From: Octopus vulgaris
Lineage: Eukaryota
Reading direction: 5' to 3'
Assembly: GCA_951406725.2 (NCBI GenBank)
Contig: OX597815.1
Span: 186,186,001-186,250,000, forward strand
Length of the DNA stretch: 64,000 bases
Below the pieces are notes generated by a model that saw nothing but the letters and a program-made list of their open reading frames with translations, had not been told where the DNA came from and made no database searches. Both the position numbers and the translations under genes were made by a program. Positions within the stretch are counted from its first letter, which is position 1; each line of letters starts with the position of its first letter. This document shows, piece by piece, positions 3,866 to 47,729 of this stretch.

Positions 3866-4380
3866 ATGATGATGCACCGCCGTTTTGCAAGACTGTTATT
3901 ACTGAGAGCCTCCTCTAATATGTGGCACTTGGTGAAGAATAGAGTTTGATATAGCTACCCCCATTTGCACCTCTTGCCGTGATGTAGGTTCATCTGGGAC
4001 TCTCGACAGTAAGAGGTCCAGCTTCGATTTAAAAACGCCCACATCTACTTTGTGCAGGTCCCCCAGGCTCTTTGGGAGAATATTAAAAAGCTGTGGGCCC
4101 TTGAAACCCAAGCTGTTGCAGTAACTGGTTCTGAAGCGTGATGGCATTGCTGGGACCTTTGGCACTATGCAGTGTCGTCCCGTTCTGGCATTGGTGTAGC
4201 TTTCAATGCCAAAATTTGGCACAATTCCTTCCAGGATCATCCAGATGTATATTACTGCATGTCTTCTCTCCAGGGAATAGAGTCTTACCTGTTTCAGCCT
4301 TTCCCAGTTGCTGAGCAGTTGCAAAGGGACGATCTTCTTTGTGAATCTTCTCTGGATTGCTTCAAGGTCCGCTGTTAATT
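3866..4380 (-). mobile_element. 5'-truncated CR1/L2-group LINE, ORF2 C-terminus
   Basis: ORF 3899..4423 contains LEAIQRRFTKKI...WERLKQVRLYSLERR...GPQLFNILP, typical of the region after the RT domain in CR1-group elements. Short (cat)n tail. Confidence 0.85.
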
Positions 4381-5099
4381 TCAATGAGTTTAATAATTGT
4401 TTCTTTGTACCTGGCTTATACATTTAGGAATATTATAAGGCAACACCGTCGAGTGCTATACGTTACAGATATCGACCACGACATTATGAAAGGTAAAGTT
4501 GACCTTGGTGAGAAATTAACACAAAATGTAAAGAAACGTAACAATATTAATTACAACGGCAAACTTGTAGGATTTTTTAGAATAAAACCTTCCATTGCAA
4601 AAGAATGAGCGACAGATGAGGCAAAATCTGCTAGAAATTATATCAATTTCAGATTTCAAACAGCATATGTCATATCAGTGGAAGAATATAGCTATGTTTA
4701 ATCTATATTATAAAGAAAAGAATGATTTAGTGAATCAATTTGTCCCTATTAAGAAAATTACCATCATTATGAAAAATTAATTATATACCGAAAAACGATT
4801 TCGGTAAATACTATTTCTGACACAACCCACCATTTGTGATTAAGAGTTGCACGAAAAACAGGCGCTTGCAAGAATATGCAATTAAAAGAACTATAAAAAT
4901 ATTTGAGTTAGTTTCACATAATTTATGTCCTCCTCCTCGCTGAATAGTTAGATATTTATGAGATATTAGAAATGAAATATAATTATGAACAAACACTGAT
5001 CATCTTGTATTAGAAGTACTAAGTTACGTAGTTAAGATAATGATAGGGAAACCAACATCGGATAAAGGAATATAAAGAAATCTGCATGTTCTTATAAAT

Positions 5100-18609: not shown

Positions 18610-19535
18610 CGAGTTGGAATTTGTAAATTTATTCTTGTTTATATTTGTAATTTTGCAGTTATTTATATCTATAATTTTGTCCCTGTTTATATTTATAATT
18701 TTGTACTTGTTTATATTTATAATTTTGTCCTTGTTTATATTTATAATTTTGTCCTTGTTTATATTTGTAAATTTGTACTTGTTTATATTTATAATTTTGT
18801 CCTTGTTTATATTTATAATTTTGTCCTTGATTATATTTATAATTTTGTCCTTGATTATATTCATAATTTTGTCCTTGTTTGTATTTGTAATTTTGTACTT
18901 GTTTATATTTATAATTTTGTCCTTGTTTATATTTGTAATTTTGTCCTTGTTTATATTTGTAATTTTTTCCTTGTTTATATTTGTAATTTTGTACTTGTTT
19001 ATATTTATAATTTTGTTCTTGTTTATATTTGTAATTTTGTACTTGTTTATATTTATAATTTTGTCCTTGTTTATATTTGTAATTTTGTCCTTGTTTATAT
19101 TTGTAATTTTGTCCTTGTTTATATTTATAATTTTTTCCTTGTTTATATTTGTAATTTTGTACTTGTTTATATTTATAATTTTGTCCTTGTTTATATTTGT
19201 AATTTTGTCCTTGTTTATATTTATAATTTTGTCCTTGTTTATAATTTTGTACTTGTTTGTATTTATAATTTTGTCCTTGTTTATATTTATAATTTTGTCT
19301 TTGTTTATATTTATAATTTTGTACTTGTTTATATTTATAATTTTATACTTGTTTATATTTGTAATTTTGTCCTTGTTTATATTTATAATTTTGTACTTGT
19401 TTATATTTATAATTTTGTACTTGCTTATATATGTAATTTTGCAGGTATTTATATTTATAATTTTGTCCTTGTTTATATTTATAATTTTGTACTTGTTTAT
19501 ATTTGTAATTTTGTACTTGTTTATATCGTAATTTT
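18610..19535. repeat. 24-bp minisatellite, about 38 units
   Basis: Unit ttgtttatattt(a/g)taattttgt(c/a)c. Source of the long low-complexity ORFs at 18422-19623. Confidence 0.95.
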
Positions 19536-36724: not shown

Positions 36725-37176
36725 TTGCGGAGGGTGTCAGTAGATTCGATCGACCCCAGTACACAACTGGTACTTAATTTAATCGACCTCGAGAGGATGA
36801 AAGCGAAAGTTGAACTCGGCGGAATTTGAACTCAGAACGTAAAGACAGACGAAATACCTATTTCTTTACTGCCCACAAAGGGCTAAACACAGAGAGGACA
36901 AATAAGGACAGACAAACGAGTTAAGTCGATCATATCGACCCCAGTGCGTAACTGGTACTTATTTAATTGACCCCGAAAGGATGAAAGGCAAAGTCGACCT
37001 CGGCGGAATTTGAACTCAGAACGTAAAGACAGATGAAATACCTATTTCTTTACTGCCCACAAGGGGCTAAACACAGAGAGGACAAACAAGGGCAGACAAA
37101 CGGATTAAGTCGATTATATCAATCCCAGTGCGTAACTGGTAATTATTTAATCGACCCCGAAAGGATGAAAGGCACA
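36725..37176 (-). mobile_element. Group A SINE tandem array
   Basis: Junctions at 36858/36859 and 37042/37043. Confidence 0.85.
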
Positions 37177-38043
37177 GTTCCTTTATGCTTCCAAGTACTT
37201 TTCTAAATGCCTTGTAGTCTATACTTTACAAATGATTCTCTCTTGTAACAATGTATTTCCGTGCTGCGTACGGTTAATTCTATTCTATATTTAGTAGCTC
37301 TATGTTGGTATTCACTTTAATTCAATTAACTTACTTCTTTTAGTTAATTGGTATACTACGAAACACATGGCTACTAAATTTATGCATATTTTTCCATAAT
37401 TGAGTTATGCATTTTTCCCCATTATACTAACTCATTTCATTTTCTTTGTCAATATTTTTATGAGAGGTTCTGTTCTAATTTTTTATTTAATTATTCAAAT
37501 ACGCTTTTATGCTTTCAGTTTTAATTACTTTGTGCCTTCCGAGAGGATATTTCACACAATTCCGTATTCTGTTATCACAGCTGATGTCAAGCAGACTTTG
37601 AAATAATAAATCTTCTAGTTAGGCCTTGTCTTTTGTAAATAATTTCAAATCATTCATGCAAAATAGATGGTTTATAATCTTCTCATAGCATTTTCAATAA
37701 CTGATGTTTTCTTTCACGTAACCAGTTAATCGTGTGTTGATTCTGGTCTGGTTATTAATTGATTGAAATCTTTCGCAACAAATTTATGAAACGTTGCTTG
37801 ATGTTTTCGAATATATTTTAATGAATTGCAGCCATGATTAAGGAGATGGATTGTTGTCCAATCCTTTTACTTTCCAATCTGAGATTTGATGCTGTCGTAT
37901 ATTTTCTGAATATTTTCCCATAGTTTACCTATGCGTTGTAGTGCTATATTGTGCTATTCTGTTTAAGAGGGCATATGGCTTCGTAGCCCTTAACGAGGTT
38001 TGTTTTAAGCAACAAATCAGTAACTGTCATCATTATCCGTTAC

Positions 38044-39535: not shown

Positions 39536-39838
39536 TCACGTGATCACGTGACCGACCAGACAATCAGATGTTGTTACACACCGCTGGTCACAATGCGTTC
39601 GCATTGTTTTAGCCTTCGAATGACGACACCCCGCTGGCTAAGCGAGCAGGCCAACAGAAGAAAGAGTGGAAGAAAGAGTGGTGAAAGAGTACAGCAGGGA
39701 TCACCACCCTCTGCCGGAGCATCGTTGAGCTTTTAGGTGTTTTCGCTCAATAAACACTCACAACGCCCGGCCTGGGAATCGAAACCGCGATCCTACGACC
39801 GCGAGTCCGCTGCCCTAACCACTGGGCCATTGCGCCTC

Positions 39839-39840
<2 letters not shown>
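39536..39840 (-). mobile_element. Group B SINE with tail type 3
   Basis: Group B head at 39840 joined to tgttggcctgctcgcttagccagcgggg...ggtcacgtgatcacgtg. Confidence 0.75.
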
Positions 39841-39870
<30 letters not shown>

Positions 39871-39962
39871 ATATTAATTAGAGACAAAACCACTATTTTG
39901 CAAAACAAACAAGGAAAGACTTAATCAATACATAAAATTTTAATAAAAAGTCAAAAGAACCG

Positions 39963-40005
39963 CCACTTCAATTGTTTCTTGTCCTGATCGACAATCTTCA
40001 GGTGG
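39963..40005 (-). ncRNA. Minimal type I hammerhead ribozyme with mutated cleavage triplet (GAA instead of GUA)
   Basis: Minus strand: ccac CUGAAGA uuguc gaucag gacaa GAAA caauug AA gugg. The base at 39968 differs from the right-hand copy. Confidence 0.8.
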
Positions 40006-42363
40006 ACTTCCAATCTAAAATATCAATATTTTAAAATATAAAAAATAATAATTTTAAAATAATTAAAGTATCAATGAAAAAATATAAATATATAATCTAT
40101 ATATAACCTATATATAATCCATATATAATCAATATATAAACAATATATAAACTAAAATAAACCTATCAACAATTAAATATAAAACAAAATAAAAATAAAC
40201 TATATATACACCCATACACATATAACTAATTATATATAACCATATCTAAATACATACACTAAATCACACACCTATATATATATCCCTATACATACACATA
40301 AAAACGTCTAGGCAACGATAAATAAATAAAATAGCCAAATACTTCAACACAATACTTATTCATACTCCCTCACACACACATACAACCCACATTCATAAAC
40401 AATATACGTATACCCGCTCACACATACATATACAAACATACAGAACTCGATATATACACCAATATATTCACACCCACAACTATACAGATAAATAAATTAC
40501 GCAAATAATCCCACACACATACACACACACCCATTCACACATACATAAACACTCAAAAGCAAAATAAATAATTCTTTGCACTTGTTGATCGAACGTTTTT
40601 TTTTTTAATTATAAATGGAATAATATATAATCAACTTAAATATACAGAATCTACTACAAAACACCAATAAACGATCATGATAAATGAAACCCACATACAT
40701 ATTATGATAAAACTCCCCCTACCATACACAATTACACCTATATAGCAAACCCATATACACATTCACACACAAATATACATACGTAAAACACACACACACA
40801 ACATATACGTATACCCCCTCACATATACATATACATACCTACTAAACTCGACATATACAACAATATTCTCACACCCACACTCATACAGATAAATAAATTA
40901 CACAACCAAAAAACGCACACACACACACACACATTCCCACATACATAAACACTCAAAAGAAAAACAACATTACTACACATAATACGATATATAAAATACT
41001 TCATAAGTAACCAGAATATCAAAAGTAACAAGATTAACATAATGAGAAAAAATATACATACTTTCAAGTCAGTTTCAAATTATGAAGTGAAATTAAATTC
41101 TATCCGTTAAAAACCTCAAACAAAATTACGTTACCATAGGAACCTAACATATGTATAAAAAGTATTCCCGCTCTGGAAACGAACATCATTTAAAATTATG
41201 AATGGAGAAATGGAATAAATGGAATTAAAAATTATATTCACGTGGTAAACGAACATTACTTAAAAATTATGAATGAAATAATGTAATAAAATAACAAACA
41301 TAGTAAATAGACATAAATTACTACGAATTCTTTAATAAAACTACCATGATAAACTAAAACTCATAAAAACATATAATGATAAAATCTCCCTTTACTAAAC
41401 TCTATAACATACCTATATAGCAATCCCCCTAACCTAAACATTCACACACAAATACACACACGTAAACCACACACCCACGACATATACAAATACCCACCTC
41501 ACTCACACATACCTATACATACGTATAAACCTCAATATATACACCAAAACCCACTCCCACCCCACACAGATAAATGAACACATACATCTCCAAACCTATA
41601 TAGCAAACCCACATACACATTCACACACAAATATACATACGTAAAACACACACCCACAACATATACATATACTCCCTCACATATACATATACATACTCAC
41701 TAAACTCGATATATACAACAATATTTTCACACCCACACTCATACAGATAAATAAATTATACAACTAAAATACACACACACACACACACACATTCCCACAT
41801 ACATAAACACTCCAAAGAAAAACAACATTATTACACATAATACGATATATAAAATACTTCATAAGTAACCAGAATATCAAAAGTAACAAGATAACATAAG
41901 GAGAAAAAATATACATACTTTCAAGTCAGTTTCAAATTATGAAGTGAAATTAAATTCTAAGCCGTTAAAAACGTCAAACAAAATTACGTTACCATAGGAA
42001 CCTAACATATGTATAAAAAGAATTCGCGCTATGGAAACAAACGTCATTTAAAATTATGAATGGAGAAATAGAATAAATGGAATTAAAAATTATATTCACG
42101 CGGTAAACGAACATTACTTAAAAATTATGAATGGAATAATGTAATATCATAAAAAGACATAAATTACTACGAATTCTTTAATAAAACTACCATGATAATT
42201 TAAAACTCATAAAAACATAAATGATAAAACCTCCCTTTACTAAACTCTATAACATACCTATATAGCAATCCCTTTAACCTATACATTCACACACAAATAC
42301 ACACACGTAAACCACACACCCATGACAAATACAAATACCCACCTCTGTCACACATACCTATAA

Positions 42364-43240
42364 GTACATATAAACCTCAACATATACACCAAAATACCAC
42401 TCCCACCCCACACGGACAAATAAACACATACATCCCCCAAAATGGGCGCAATCCCACGCACACCAATCATACATGTATACAATTGCACACACAAGAACAA
42501 TACATAACTAACCCAAATATACAGAACATACCACAAATCACCAACCAACCACCATGACAAATGAAACCCACACCCATACAATGACAAAACTCCCCCTCCA
42601 TACACAATTACACCCACATAGCAATCCCCATATATACATCCACACACAAACACACATACGCAAAACACACACACACAACACATACGTACACCCCCCCACA
42701 CACACCCATATACATACGTACCAAACTCGACATCCACAACAATACGCTCACACCCACTCACACACAGATAAACAAACTACACAACCAAAAAACGCACACA
42801 CACACGTGTGCGTATTTTAGTTGTGCAATTCACCCATCTGCATGAGTGCGGGCGCGAACACACCGTTGCACATATCGAGCCCAGCAAGCATGCACATGTA
42901 CATGTGAGGGGGTACACGCACATGCCGTGCGCGTATGCCCCACGCACGTATACCCGTGCGCGAATGTACACATGGAGACTGCCACACAGGTACAATCGTG
43001 CATAGCAAAGGGAGCCCCATCACTACACGTATATGGGCCCCATTCATCACGATGGTCCACCAACAATTCATAGCAAACTCCGCACATTCAAGTCGATCAC
43101 ACATCACTCCCGCAAATGCAACTGCACACATACACGACCGATACTCGCGAGACCACACCCACCCGCAAGGATGCATACGCTCACCCATCCGCACGGATGT
43201 GGAAGCGAATCACCGGTGTATATATTGAGGCTCATACGTA
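42364..43240. repeat. Internal ~440+435 bp fold-back with T>C hypermutation in both arms
   Basis: Centre at 42805/42806 (cgcacacacacac|gtgtgcg). The right arm aligns to 44543-44850 and to the reverse complement of 42364-42805. Confidence 0.85.
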
Positions 43241-45458
43241 GCGCTATGGAAACAAACGTCATTAAAATTATGAATGGAATAAATGGAATTAAAAATTATA
43301 ACCAGGTGGTAAACTAACATTACTTAAAATTATGAATGGAATAATGTAATAAAATAACAAACATCAAAAATAGACATAAATTACTACAAATTATTTATTA
43401 AAACTACCATGATAAACTAAAACTCATAAATACATATAATGATAAAACCTCCCTTTACTAAACACTATAACAAACCTATAAAGCAATCCCCCTAACCTAT
43501 ACATTCAAACACAAATACACACACATAAACCACACACCCACGACATATACAAATACCCACCTCACTCACACATACCTATACATACGTATATACCTCGATA
43601 TACACACCAAAAATTCACTCCCACACCCATACAGACATATAAACATATACATCCCTAAAAATGGATGCAATCTCACGCACATCAATCATGCATGTATACA
43701 AGTGCATACATAAGCACACACTTTTACATAGCACCATGCACTCCCACATCTACACCTGCACTTATACACACGCACACATACACACACACCCATGCAACAT
43801 ACATATTCACGGACACTCTCCTAGACATCCAAATATACATATAAATATACGTATAAATGGCTACAATACAATACCCATTATAACTACCATGAGCAACAAA
43901 CCAAGCCATAATGCATGGGGACTAATACTAAAAAATTCTAAATAAAATAATCATGGTAAATGAAATCCATACATACAAATAAAACCCCTAACAAAAAACA
44001 ATACACACAAATACACACACATATATATACACACACCCACAACCATAACCATATACACACTCTCACAAACATATACATACTTACAAACCTCGACATATAC
44101 ACCAATATATTCATTCCCACATTAAAGAATTCGTAGTAATTTATGTCTATTTACGATGTTTGTTATTTTATTACATTATTTCATTCATAATTTTTAAGTA
44201 ATGTTCGTTTACCACGTGAATATAATTTTTAATTCCATTTATTCCATTTCTCCATTCATAATTTTAAATGATGTTCGTTTCCAGAGCGGGAATACTTTTT
44301 ATACATATGTTAGGTTCCTATGGTAACGTAATTTTGTTTGACGTTTTTAACGGATAGAATTTAATTTCACTTCATAATTTGAAACTGACTTGAAAGTATG
44401 TATATTTTTTCTCATTATGTTAATCTTGTTACTTTTGATATTCTGGTTACTTATGAAGTATTTTATATATCGTATTATGTGTAGTAATGTTGTTTTTCTT
44501 TTGAGTGTTTATGTATGTGGGAATGTGTGTGTGTGTGTGTGTGTGTGCGTTTTTTGGTTGTGTAATTTATTTATCTGTATGAGTGTGGGTGTGAGAATAT
44601 TGTTGTATATGTCGAGTTTAGTAGGTATGTATATGTATATGTGAGGGGGTATACGTATATGTTGTGTGTGTGTGTTTTACGTATGTATATTTGTGTGTGA
44701 ATGTGTATATGGGTTTGCTATATAGGTGTAATTGTGTATGGTAGGGGGAGTTTTATCATAATATGTATGTGGGTTTCATTTATCATGATCGTTTATTGGT
44801 GTTTTGTAGTAGATTCTGTATATTTAAGTTGATTATATATTATTCCATTTATAATTTTAAAAAAAAAAAGTTCGATCAACAAGTGCAAAGAATTATTTAT
44901 TTTGCTTTTGAGTGTTTATGTATGTGTGAATGGGTGTGTGTGTGTGTGTGTGGGATTATTTGCGTAATTTATTTATCTGTATAGTTGTGGGTGTGAATAT
45001 ATTGGTGTATATATCGAGTTCTGTATGTTTGTATATGTATGTGTGAGCGGGTATACGTATATTGTTTATGAATGTGGGTTGTATGTGTGTGTGAGGGAGT
45101 ATGAATAAGTATTGTGTTGAAGTATTTGGCTATTTTATTTATTTATCGTTGCCTAGACGTTTTTATGTGTATGTATAGGGATATATATATAGGTGTGTGA
45201 TTTAGTGTATGTATTTAGATATGGTTATATATAATTAGTTATATGTGTATGGGTGTATATATAGTTTATTTTTATTTTGTTTTATATTTAATTGTTGATA
45301 GGTTTATTTTAGTTTATATATTGTTTATATATTGATTATATATGGATTATATATAGGTTATATATAGATTATATATTTATATTTTTTCATTGATACTTTA
45401 ATTATTTTAAAATTATTATTTTTTATATTTTAAAATATTGATATTTTAGATTGGAAGT

Positions 45459-45501
45459 CCACCTGAAGATTGTCGATCAGGACAAGAAACAATTGTAGTG
45501 G
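45459..45501 (+). ncRNA. Minimal type I hammerhead ribozyme, intact
   Basis: Stem I ccac/gugg, CUGAAGA at 45463-45469, stem II uuguc/gacaa, GAAA at 45486-45489, palindromic stem III caauug, GUA cleavage triplet ending at 45497. Confidence 0.9.
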
Positions 45502-45675
45502 CGGTTTTTTTTACTTTTTATTAAAATTTTATGTATTGATTAAGTCTTTCCTTGTTTGTTTTGCAAAATAGTGGTTTTGTCTCTAATTAATATTATATAA
45601 TATTTTACTATAAAATTGGTTTCAATCCTAAATCTGATTTTTTTCCCTGTAAATTTGGATTTATTCCCTAATATT

Positions 45676-45725
<50 letters not shown>

Positions 45726-46639: not shown

Positions 46640-47729
46640 GGTACTCGAAGTACTTGTTTTATCGACCCCAGAATGATGAGTAGCAACGTTGACCTTTGTT
46701 AGATTTGAACTCAGAATATAGAGAGCCCGAAGAAACACCGCTAAGCATCCATCCCCGATCTTATAATAATGATTTCAAATTTCGGCACTAGACCAGTAAT
46801 TTCTGGATAGGGGATAAGTCTATTACATCAACCCCAATATTTAACTGGTACTTATTTTATCGACCCCGAAAAATGAAATGCAAAGTCGATCTCGGTGGAA
46901 ATTGAACTCAGAACATAAAGGTGGACGAAATGCCACTAAGATTTTTGCCAGTTCTCCAGCTTAGGATCTTAGAATAATAATGATCGTTTCTGGAATGGGC
47001 ACAATGCCAGTGCTTTATTGGTACTTAATTTATCGACCCAGAAAGGATGACAGGCAAAGTCGGCCAAGGCGGAATTTGAACTGAGAATGTATAGACGGAT
47101 GCAACAGGGCTAAGCATTGTGACCGGCGTGTTAATGCCTTTTATTTCTTAATTGCCCACAAAGGGCTAAACATAGAGAAGACAAACAAAGGGATTAAGTC
47201 GATTACATTGACCCCAGTAGACAACTGGTACTTATTTTATCGACCCCGAAAGGATGACAGGCAGAGTCGACCTCGGCGGAATTTGAACTCAGAATGTAAC
47301 GGCAGACGAAATACCTATTTCTTTACTGCCCATAAGGGGCCAAACACAGAGAGGACAAGCGAGGACAGACAAACGGATTAAGTCGATTATATCGGCCCCA
47401 GTGCGTAACTGGTACTTATTTAATCGACCCCGAAAGGATGAAAGGCAAAGTCGACCTCGGCAGAATTTGAACTCAGAACGTAGTGGCAGACAAAATGCCT
47501 ATTTCTTTACTGTCCACAAGGAGCTACACACAGAGGGGACAAACAAGGACAGACAAACGGATTAAGTCGATTATATCGACCCTAGTGCGTAACTGGTTCT
47601 TAATTTATTGACCCCGAAAGGACGACAAGCAAGTCTACCTCGGCGGAATTTGAACTCAGAACGCAACGGCAGACGAAATACCTCTAAGTATTTCACCCTC
47701 GTGCTAACGTTTCTGCCAGCTCGCCGCCT
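46640..47729 (-). mobile_element. Group A SINE cluster: three young tandem units plus older units
   Basis: Junctions at 47315/47316 and 47499/47500; head at 47729. Confidence 0.82.

Follow-up and report, generated by a model that had tools for sequence, protein, structure and literature searches.

A Penelope-like retrotransposon of Octopus vulgaris carries, fixed in genomic DNA, dense A>G changes of the kind that ADAR hyper-editing leaves in double-stranded RNA. These changes are confined to segments that would pair in the element RNA, are common to dozens of copies, and were renewed in a descendant lineage. We consider it very probable that they go back to ADAR hyper-editing of germline element RNA that was fixed by retrotransposition, and that this happened repeatedly. 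The patterns of change, their strand, their confinement to particular segments and the structure of the copies are read directly from DNA. The element lies in the window analysed here, a stretch of 64,000 nucleotides (C2:186186001-186250000) in a genome of 2.8 Gb in 227 contigs.

The element and its relatives

Judged from its sequence, the element in the window is a Penelope-like retrotransposon resembling the Hydra clade (Table 1). It consists of two 5'-truncated units joined head to head, one running on the minus strand from 44120 to 39865, the other on the plus strand from 44121 to 45680. The minus-strand unit is colinear with the region 3' of the reverse transcriptase-endonuclease (RT-EN) ORF in the related copies L043, L044 and L045. 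The 1.47 kb shared by both units (39865-41336 and 44121-45599) differ by 8 substitutions, a single one of them a transition, and the claim of the original prediction that these outer arms are free of bias is thereby borne out. The outer arms arose at insertion, later than the edits described below. An exact 25-mer from the extra terminal tail of the plus-strand unit was unmatched in all six loci tried, a variable run of T probably spoiling the match.

Table 1. Features of the element and of its immediate flanks (window coordinates).
Feature	Position	Strand	Remarks and basis
Retroelement	39865 to about 45680		Flanked by (TA)n runs; sequence
Shorter (CA)n(TA)n run, left flank	about 39838-39864		Sequence
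Copy, truncated at its 5' end, of a Penelope-like element's 3' untranslated region	39865..44120	- (RNA sense = minus)	Modular G/T-rich repeats
Predicted type I hammerhead motif	39963..40005	-	Short palindromic helix III, triplet GAA; sequence, regular expression
Hairpin arm A (3' arm in RNA)	42364..42805	-	Outgroup L052
Hairpin arm B (5' arm in RNA)	42806..43240	-	Inverted duplicate of arm A, GC-rich patch
Block unedited in the window	43241..43443	+	Homologue edited in the second wave (inverted sub-lineage)
Second, inverted 5'-truncated copy, unedited	44121..45680	+	99% identity to 39865-41336
Predicted hammerhead motif	45459..45501	+	Intact GUA triplet; regular expression
Extra terminal tail of the plus-strand unit	about 45600-45680		By-eye comparison with L063 7020-7100
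(TA)n target microsatellite	45681..45721		Sequence

The hammerhead motifs match the type with a short palindromic helix III described in PMC4209133 and are taken here as predicted ribozymes. GUA is the cleavage triplet in the right-hand motif and in all other hits of the regular expression, while GAA occurs only in the left-hand one, which is therefore probably inactive. No ribozyme was found in the window element by Rfam at gathering score, and the hammerhead does not stand out when single sequences are folded (z about 0); its assignment is based on conserved cores that were read directly. The exact 32-nt core occurs 181 times in the genome.

An intact relative, L063, encodes a single ORF of 840 amino acids with RT plus a GIY-YIG endonuclease at the C terminus (motifs YRDD and VYIG). 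Hammerhead motifs stand at both of its ends on the ORF strand, as they do in L072, L090, L098, L099 and L102. Pseudo-LTRs with a hammerhead and an inverted 5'-truncated partner are present, as in EN+ Penelope-like elements. Pfam and PDB searches with the 840-aa ORF returned no significant hit, and among its Atlas neighbours GIY-YIG, HTH_animal and RVT_1 are found on a minority of members. The ORF contains DKT, the linker motif CTCRDKSNC (CxCx5C), CYLC (CxxC) and CRH (CxH), and lacks CCHH; these features are common to the Hydra clade as described by Craig et al. (2021; PMC8557442). It has KWK where the Hydra clade has RWK, and a single Cys between the GIY-like and YIG motifs. According to the same description the clade inserts into (TA)n, as found at the flanks in the window. 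In contrast, its members are generally shorter than 3 kb (PMC8557442), whereas L063 measures about 7 kb, with a modular, repeatedly inverted 3' untranslated region (UTR) of 4 kb. The putative assignment to the Hydra clade thus rests on motifs, with length as the exception. Base composition of the sense strand differs between the 4-kb UTR (G 0.22, A 0.25) and the ORF (G 0.13, A 0.42). The RT-EN linker of L063 (about 1850-2130) is a long low-complexity tract of Asn and Lys, the length of which varies among copies.

Elsewhere in the window, 18619-19526 holds a 24-bp tandem array of 38 copies with several open frames. Tandem units of 184 bp at 36749-37178 and 47180-47683 belong to an abundant SINE-like repeat with more copies across the window. 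A 174-aa frame at 3899-4423 on the minus strand appears to resemble the C-terminal portion of a LINE-type reverse transcriptase.

A hairpin with one-sided changes

The original prediction read the GC-rich patch as an inverted copy of the element's own module. Arm B is indeed the inverted duplicate of arm A, the two forming a hairpin of about 430 bp. The by-eye comparison of 42806-42929 with 44543-44666 was reproduced exactly, with 27 T>C changes, 6 others (4 G>A, 1 T>A, 1 A>C) and no C>T. The GC content of arm B is 0.53, compared with 0.30 in unedited modules.

Two approaches describe the direction of change. In a reference-free alignment of arm A with the reverse complement of arm B, 171 of 172 transition mismatches are such that the minus strand has G·U pairs (p = 6e-50), beside 15 transversions. 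A symmetric spectrum, named beforehand as a finding that would count against editing, was thus not observed. The second approach uses L052 and L055, which carry the same module without the duplication and serve as unedited outgroups. Relative to L052, arm A shows T>C, that is A>G on the minus strand, at 52 of 108 sites (edits from 42381 to 42786), which agrees with the shift claimed earlier for this arm; in the same register arm B shows A>G on the minus strand at 113 of 196 sites (42826 to 43233). The edits end about 20 nt from the apex of the hairpin, and 17 and 7 nt from its open end. When only changes fixed in five full-hairpin copies are counted, at sites where both unedited outgroups agree, A>G on the RNA-sense strand amounts to 145/266 and all other changes together to 9/519.

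A single hairpin of about 430 bp is predicted for the minus strand, with -573 kcal/mol over 42300-43300 (1001 nt), while the plus strand folds poorly (-183 kcal/mol for 42364-43240, 877 nt). Bias outside the arms, a second finding proposed as adverse, was not seen in the flanks of the hairpin, where A>G is near background (6/191 and 4/183). Beyond the hairpin, A>G is mildly in excess in the module 40618-41588 (16/240 vs G>A 2/214). Among 61 C/T mismatches, 10 are G>A changes in arm B and so no edits of arm A; these are later than the edits, because most of them are missing in L044-L046.

The editing rate depends on the 5' neighbour, with 39/59 for A, 72/121 for U, 26/59 for C and 7/23 for G (0.66, 0.60, 0.44 and 0.30; p = 0.006), and 5' G differs from the rest (7/23 vs 137/239; p = 0.016). 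The statement that most TC sites are spared holds for arm B, in which 1 of 9 sites with 5' G is edited, but avoidance is weak in arm A (8/17). By 3' neighbour the rates are 13/17 for G, 40/58 for A, 33/60 for C and 58/127 for U. Depletion of G upstream of the edited site is the shared motif of metazoan ADARs (PMC5625713), and A_deamin domain matches are found at 4 places in the genome. Editing had also been credited with a CpG-rich patch: 28 of the 42 CpG in the hairpin do owe their C to T>C, but the observed/expected ratio of about 1.05 lies below the 1.17-1.35 of unedited modules.

Gradual substitution under selection for the hairpin, in which A-U to G·U changes are tolerated, combined with gene conversion between copies, is one alternative explanation. 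Nearly all changes in the hairpin do keep pairing on the sense strand in the predicted fold, and the basal copies differ from the window at a few A/G sites. Yet C>U on the sense strand, which such selection would tolerate equally, is rare (3/109 vs 145/266 for A>G), and background drift in the element family is C>T/G>A, opposite to the edits. Moreover, all hairpin copies carry about 155-165 edits each, with few transversions, whereas the outgroups carry none, and there are no intermediates; nor would such selection predict a neighbour bias. We regard this explanation as largely refuted and very unlikely.

Sense strand

The minus strand had been called the sense strand on account of the left-hand hammerhead. 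That evidence is insufficient alone, since the window element carries hammerheads on both strands, and the sense strand was therefore taken from the ORF of related copies. The ORF precedes the hairpin in L043, L044 and L045, which fixes minus as sense, and mismatches of the G·U type outnumber those of the A·C type on the ORF strand by 175:3, 171:1 and 161:2, respectively. With the sense so assigned from the predicted ORF, the changes are A>G on the RNA-sense strand.

Copies of the edited hairpin

The GC-rich patch has near-full matches on C10, C17, C2, C13 and C1 at 93-99%, and about 30 further matches carry a deletion of 142 nt. At least part of the edited hairpin is present in 51 of 60 fetched loci; 40 of these loci were chosen because they resemble the window and 20 because they resemble the L063 ORF, and the fraction is therefore not a family-wide rate. 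All 22 other aligned copies retain nearly all of the G states that fall within them. One 26-mer of arm B is found 17 times as an exact match in the genome, and all 13 matches to the apex are in the edited state. An unedited hairpin donor was sought in the genome and none was found. Because the G states are shared across copies, the first wave of changes was essentially one event in a master, followed by a small number of later A/G differences among basal copies. The edits in the window date from this ancestor and not from the transcript behind the window insertion. Whether the A>G patterns would prove shared or copy-specific had been left as a check, and both are seen, in the form of one edited master in dozens of copies and later waves specific to groups.

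Within the sub-group L083-L102, the old hairpin shows a shared C>T decay of about 12-15% that affects edited and ancestral C alike; the ORF end of these copies is 98-99% identical to that of L063.

Long palindromes are difficult to sequence, and an error of basecalling or assembly could in principle mimic such a patch. The bases themselves can be checked in public DNA data: contigs assembled from three runs (three studies, two organism labels) match the patch with few differences (for example, 1 over 42789-42912 and 4 over 42999-43208), and the variants listed are not reversions to T. None of the contigs spans the stretch in full. The same C bases are also found at dispersed loci that have one arm only or a broken hairpin, and the 26-mer count points the same way. 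Since 51 of 60 loci and the public DNA runs carry the patch, the edits belong to an edited master; the artefact reading is refuted by the DNA-run contigs, and we assign it a negligible probability.

A second wave in an inverted sub-lineage

A copy in the original orientation with the 142-nt deletion, L048, has no A>G change at 103 sites in the block homologous to 43241-43443. In a sub-lineage of the L063 type, the orientation of the block 42313-43443 relative to the ORF is reversed, and folding predicts that the block pairs with downstream modules. Here the homologue of 43241-43443 shows A>G on the ORF strand at 33-52 of about 103 sites per copy. Pooled over 32 related copies, A>G amounts to 1441/3278 and T>C to 5/1787 on the ORF strand, totals that overstate independence because the copies are related. 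The partner modules of the inverted block show A>G at 752/7407 vs T>C at 144/15000, and the pseudo-LTR, as a control, A>G at 72/4925. The count covers 43 loci, of which 3 without junction were excluded and 5 without downstream hammerhead were excluded from the totals; block F is missing for L089, L096 and L100, and the arm rows of L100 look misaligned. The ORF is a weak control in this count, its reference being L063 itself and the ORF being under selection.

Avoidance of 5' G is strong in this wave, with 2/81 edited in nine representatives, compared with 0.41-0.48 for other neighbours; counted by site, the figures are 0/9 for 5' G and 51/94 for the others. A as 3' neighbour is edited at 0.69 in the first wave and 0.37 in the second, and U is lowest in both. 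Invertebrate hyper-editing is described as enriching 3' A (PMC5625713).

Across 11 representatives, 13 of 76 edited sites are common to all, and copies differ on average by 23 A/G changes vs 4.4 other changes. The edit patterns of L066, L070 and L090 are nearly nested, each within the next, and those of others are non-nested. All four gametes occur at 515 of 1953 pairs of sites, and recombination could therefore account for part of the non-nested patterns. As a whole, the patterns fit several independently edited transcripts together with re-editing of edited masters.

A biased, error-prone Penelope RT that miscopies a structured template would likewise tie the changes to retrotransposition and to duplex regions. 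Such an enzyme would need to insert C for half of the A in the template, in both arms, while sparing 5'-GA, and nevertheless to copy ORF and pseudo-LTR faithfully and to leave T>C on the sense strand at about zero (see the pooled count). RT slipping on this template would more readily yield U>C or G>A; if ADAR worked on the cDNA strand, T>C on the sense strand would result. We judge RT error to be highly improbable, and hyper-editing of the element RNA is retained as the reading of both waves.

Insertion-made palindromes as controls

Insertion of these elements produces inverted repeats of its own, and these are unbiased. Counts of the two types of transition mismatch are 1:2 in L064, 2:1 in L074, 2:3 in L080 and 11:10 in L050, and 0:0, 1:0, 2:3, 8:10, 0:1 and 1:1 in six further repeats; for unbiased palindromes the columns compared numbered 1237 (0:0), 2195 (1:0) and 1767 (1:1). 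The exception is L061 (1992-7727), in which the palindrome takes in the whole element; over its 2867 paired columns the transition mismatches number 16 vs 4 (p = 0.012), a skew that is possibly due to light editing of a later transcript.

These controls bear on adenine deamination or error-prone repair acting on a DNA hairpin (plus-strand DNA) or cruciform, with an ADAR/ADAT-like enzyme and a Y-family polymerase as examples of possible agents. ADARs edit deoxyadenosine in DNA:RNA hybrids used as model substrates (PMC12925331), and the inversions of this family arise at the DNA level. However, palindromes of 1-2.9 kb newly formed in the DNA of this family carry essentially no edits, and both waves fall on the ORF-sense strand. 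A Y-family polymerase is expected to leave a WA-restricted signature, unlike the rate of 0.44-0.48 found here with 5' C. An origin in DNA hairpins is therefore very improbable, if somewhat less so than the other alternatives, and editing at the RNA level is preferred.

An apparent hairpin of 1357 columns in L052 with a bias of 237:4 proved to be a (TA)n/(TACA)n microsatellite and was dropped together with other microsatellite self-matches. This microsatellite (L052 5354-8070, on C16) measures 2.7 kb and adjoins the 5' end of an unedited copy. Where C interrupts the repeat, the change is in every case T>C on one strand, equivalent to A>G on the element sense strand. The pattern is probably ordinary drift; an edited (AU)n transcript would look alike.

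Proposed mechanism

The course of events proposed in the original prediction, in which the element RNA was hyper-edited and then retrotransposed, is supported by the one-sided spectrum and by flanks near background, and we infer the ADAR step from the signature. An ancestral Penelope-like copy would first have gained an inverted duplication of 435 nt in its 3' UTR, an inversion of the kind that these elements make on insertion. This step is visible only through the structure, as no unedited donor was found and all apex matches are edited. A germline transcript of this copy would then have folded into the near-perfect hairpin of 430 bp, in which ADAR would have deaminated about 55% of A in both arms. 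The element RT would have read inosine as G, and the DNA of the loci shows that the edited copy served as a master from which dozens of loci, the one in the window included, were seeded. The outer 1.47-kb arms, made later at insertion, would never have been duplex in the template RNA, consistent with their unedited state.

A descendant appears to have lost 142 nt of arm B, after which the block was inverted; both changes are present in DNA, and their order, as well as that of the second wave, is the one we infer. After inversion the old hairpin would be unpaired on the sense RNA, G·U becoming A·C, and the inverted block would pair with downstream modules. This new duplex would then have been edited over several independent, successive transposition cycles.

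Relation to known systems and meaning

The nearest likeness is found in avian retroviruses (Rous-associated virus, avian leukosis virus), in which an inverted repeat with nearly 50% A to G changes was reverse-transcribed into DNA (Hajjar and Linial, 1995, and Felder et al., 1994, as reviewed in PMC12925331). As described there, these are exogenous viruses and single variants, whereas here an endogenous Penelope-like element has a germline-fixed master, dozens of copies and renewed editing. APOBEC editing of endogenous LTR elements likewise leaves dense, strand-biased clusters of one type of change that can be polarised by relatives (PMC4866542, PMC2873906). That process, in the accounts given, concerns vertebrate LTR elements and yields G>A on the sense strand by cytidine deamination of cDNA, independent of duplex; the changes here are A>G and confined to duplexes. 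The LTR-element screen in these accounts reported invertebrates to be devoid of APOBEC-type editing (PMC4866542, PMC2873906). In metazoan transcriptomes, hyper-editing takes the form of A>G clusters within long duplexes, G being depleted at the upstream position, and octopus gave one of the two strongest signals in that survey (Porath et al., 2017; PMC5625713). Those hyper-edits exist only in RNA, while the present ones are in genomic DNA. A search limited to the open literature found no example in which ADAR-type edits had become fixed in any endogenous non-LTR family, Penelope-like or otherwise, and no case of such edits with amplification and repeated waves.

A-to-I editing is usually treated as an RNA change that is not inherited. 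Here its signature stands in germline DNA at a density of 55%, has been amplified and has been renewed. A 2016 review considered the role that editing by ADAR has had in Alu subfamilies' evolution to be undetermined (PMC4982230), and the element offers a concrete case for the question left open there, whether ADAR shapes retroelement subfamilies. The finding implies an encounter between ADAR and retrotransposon RNA in the germline or early embryo, as well as continued use of RNA as template after heavy editing, and the editing patterns of single molecules are preserved as DNA. It is also a warning that screens comparing RNA with the genome for editing, as well as the dating of repeats, may be misled by A>G changes fixed in paralogous copies.

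Tentatively, and with more doubt than confidence, we hypothesize that the evolution of this family is driven by an inversion-editing ratchet, in which every new inversion creates a duplex that is edited by ADAR, the edits become fixed through RT, and the edited copies escape dsRNA silencing and out-transpose unedited ones. If this were true, the G-rich, A-poor sense strand of the 4-kb UTR would be a fossil of older cycles, and the genomic copies would hold a dated history of ADAR activity in the germline and of RNA editing that is inherited.
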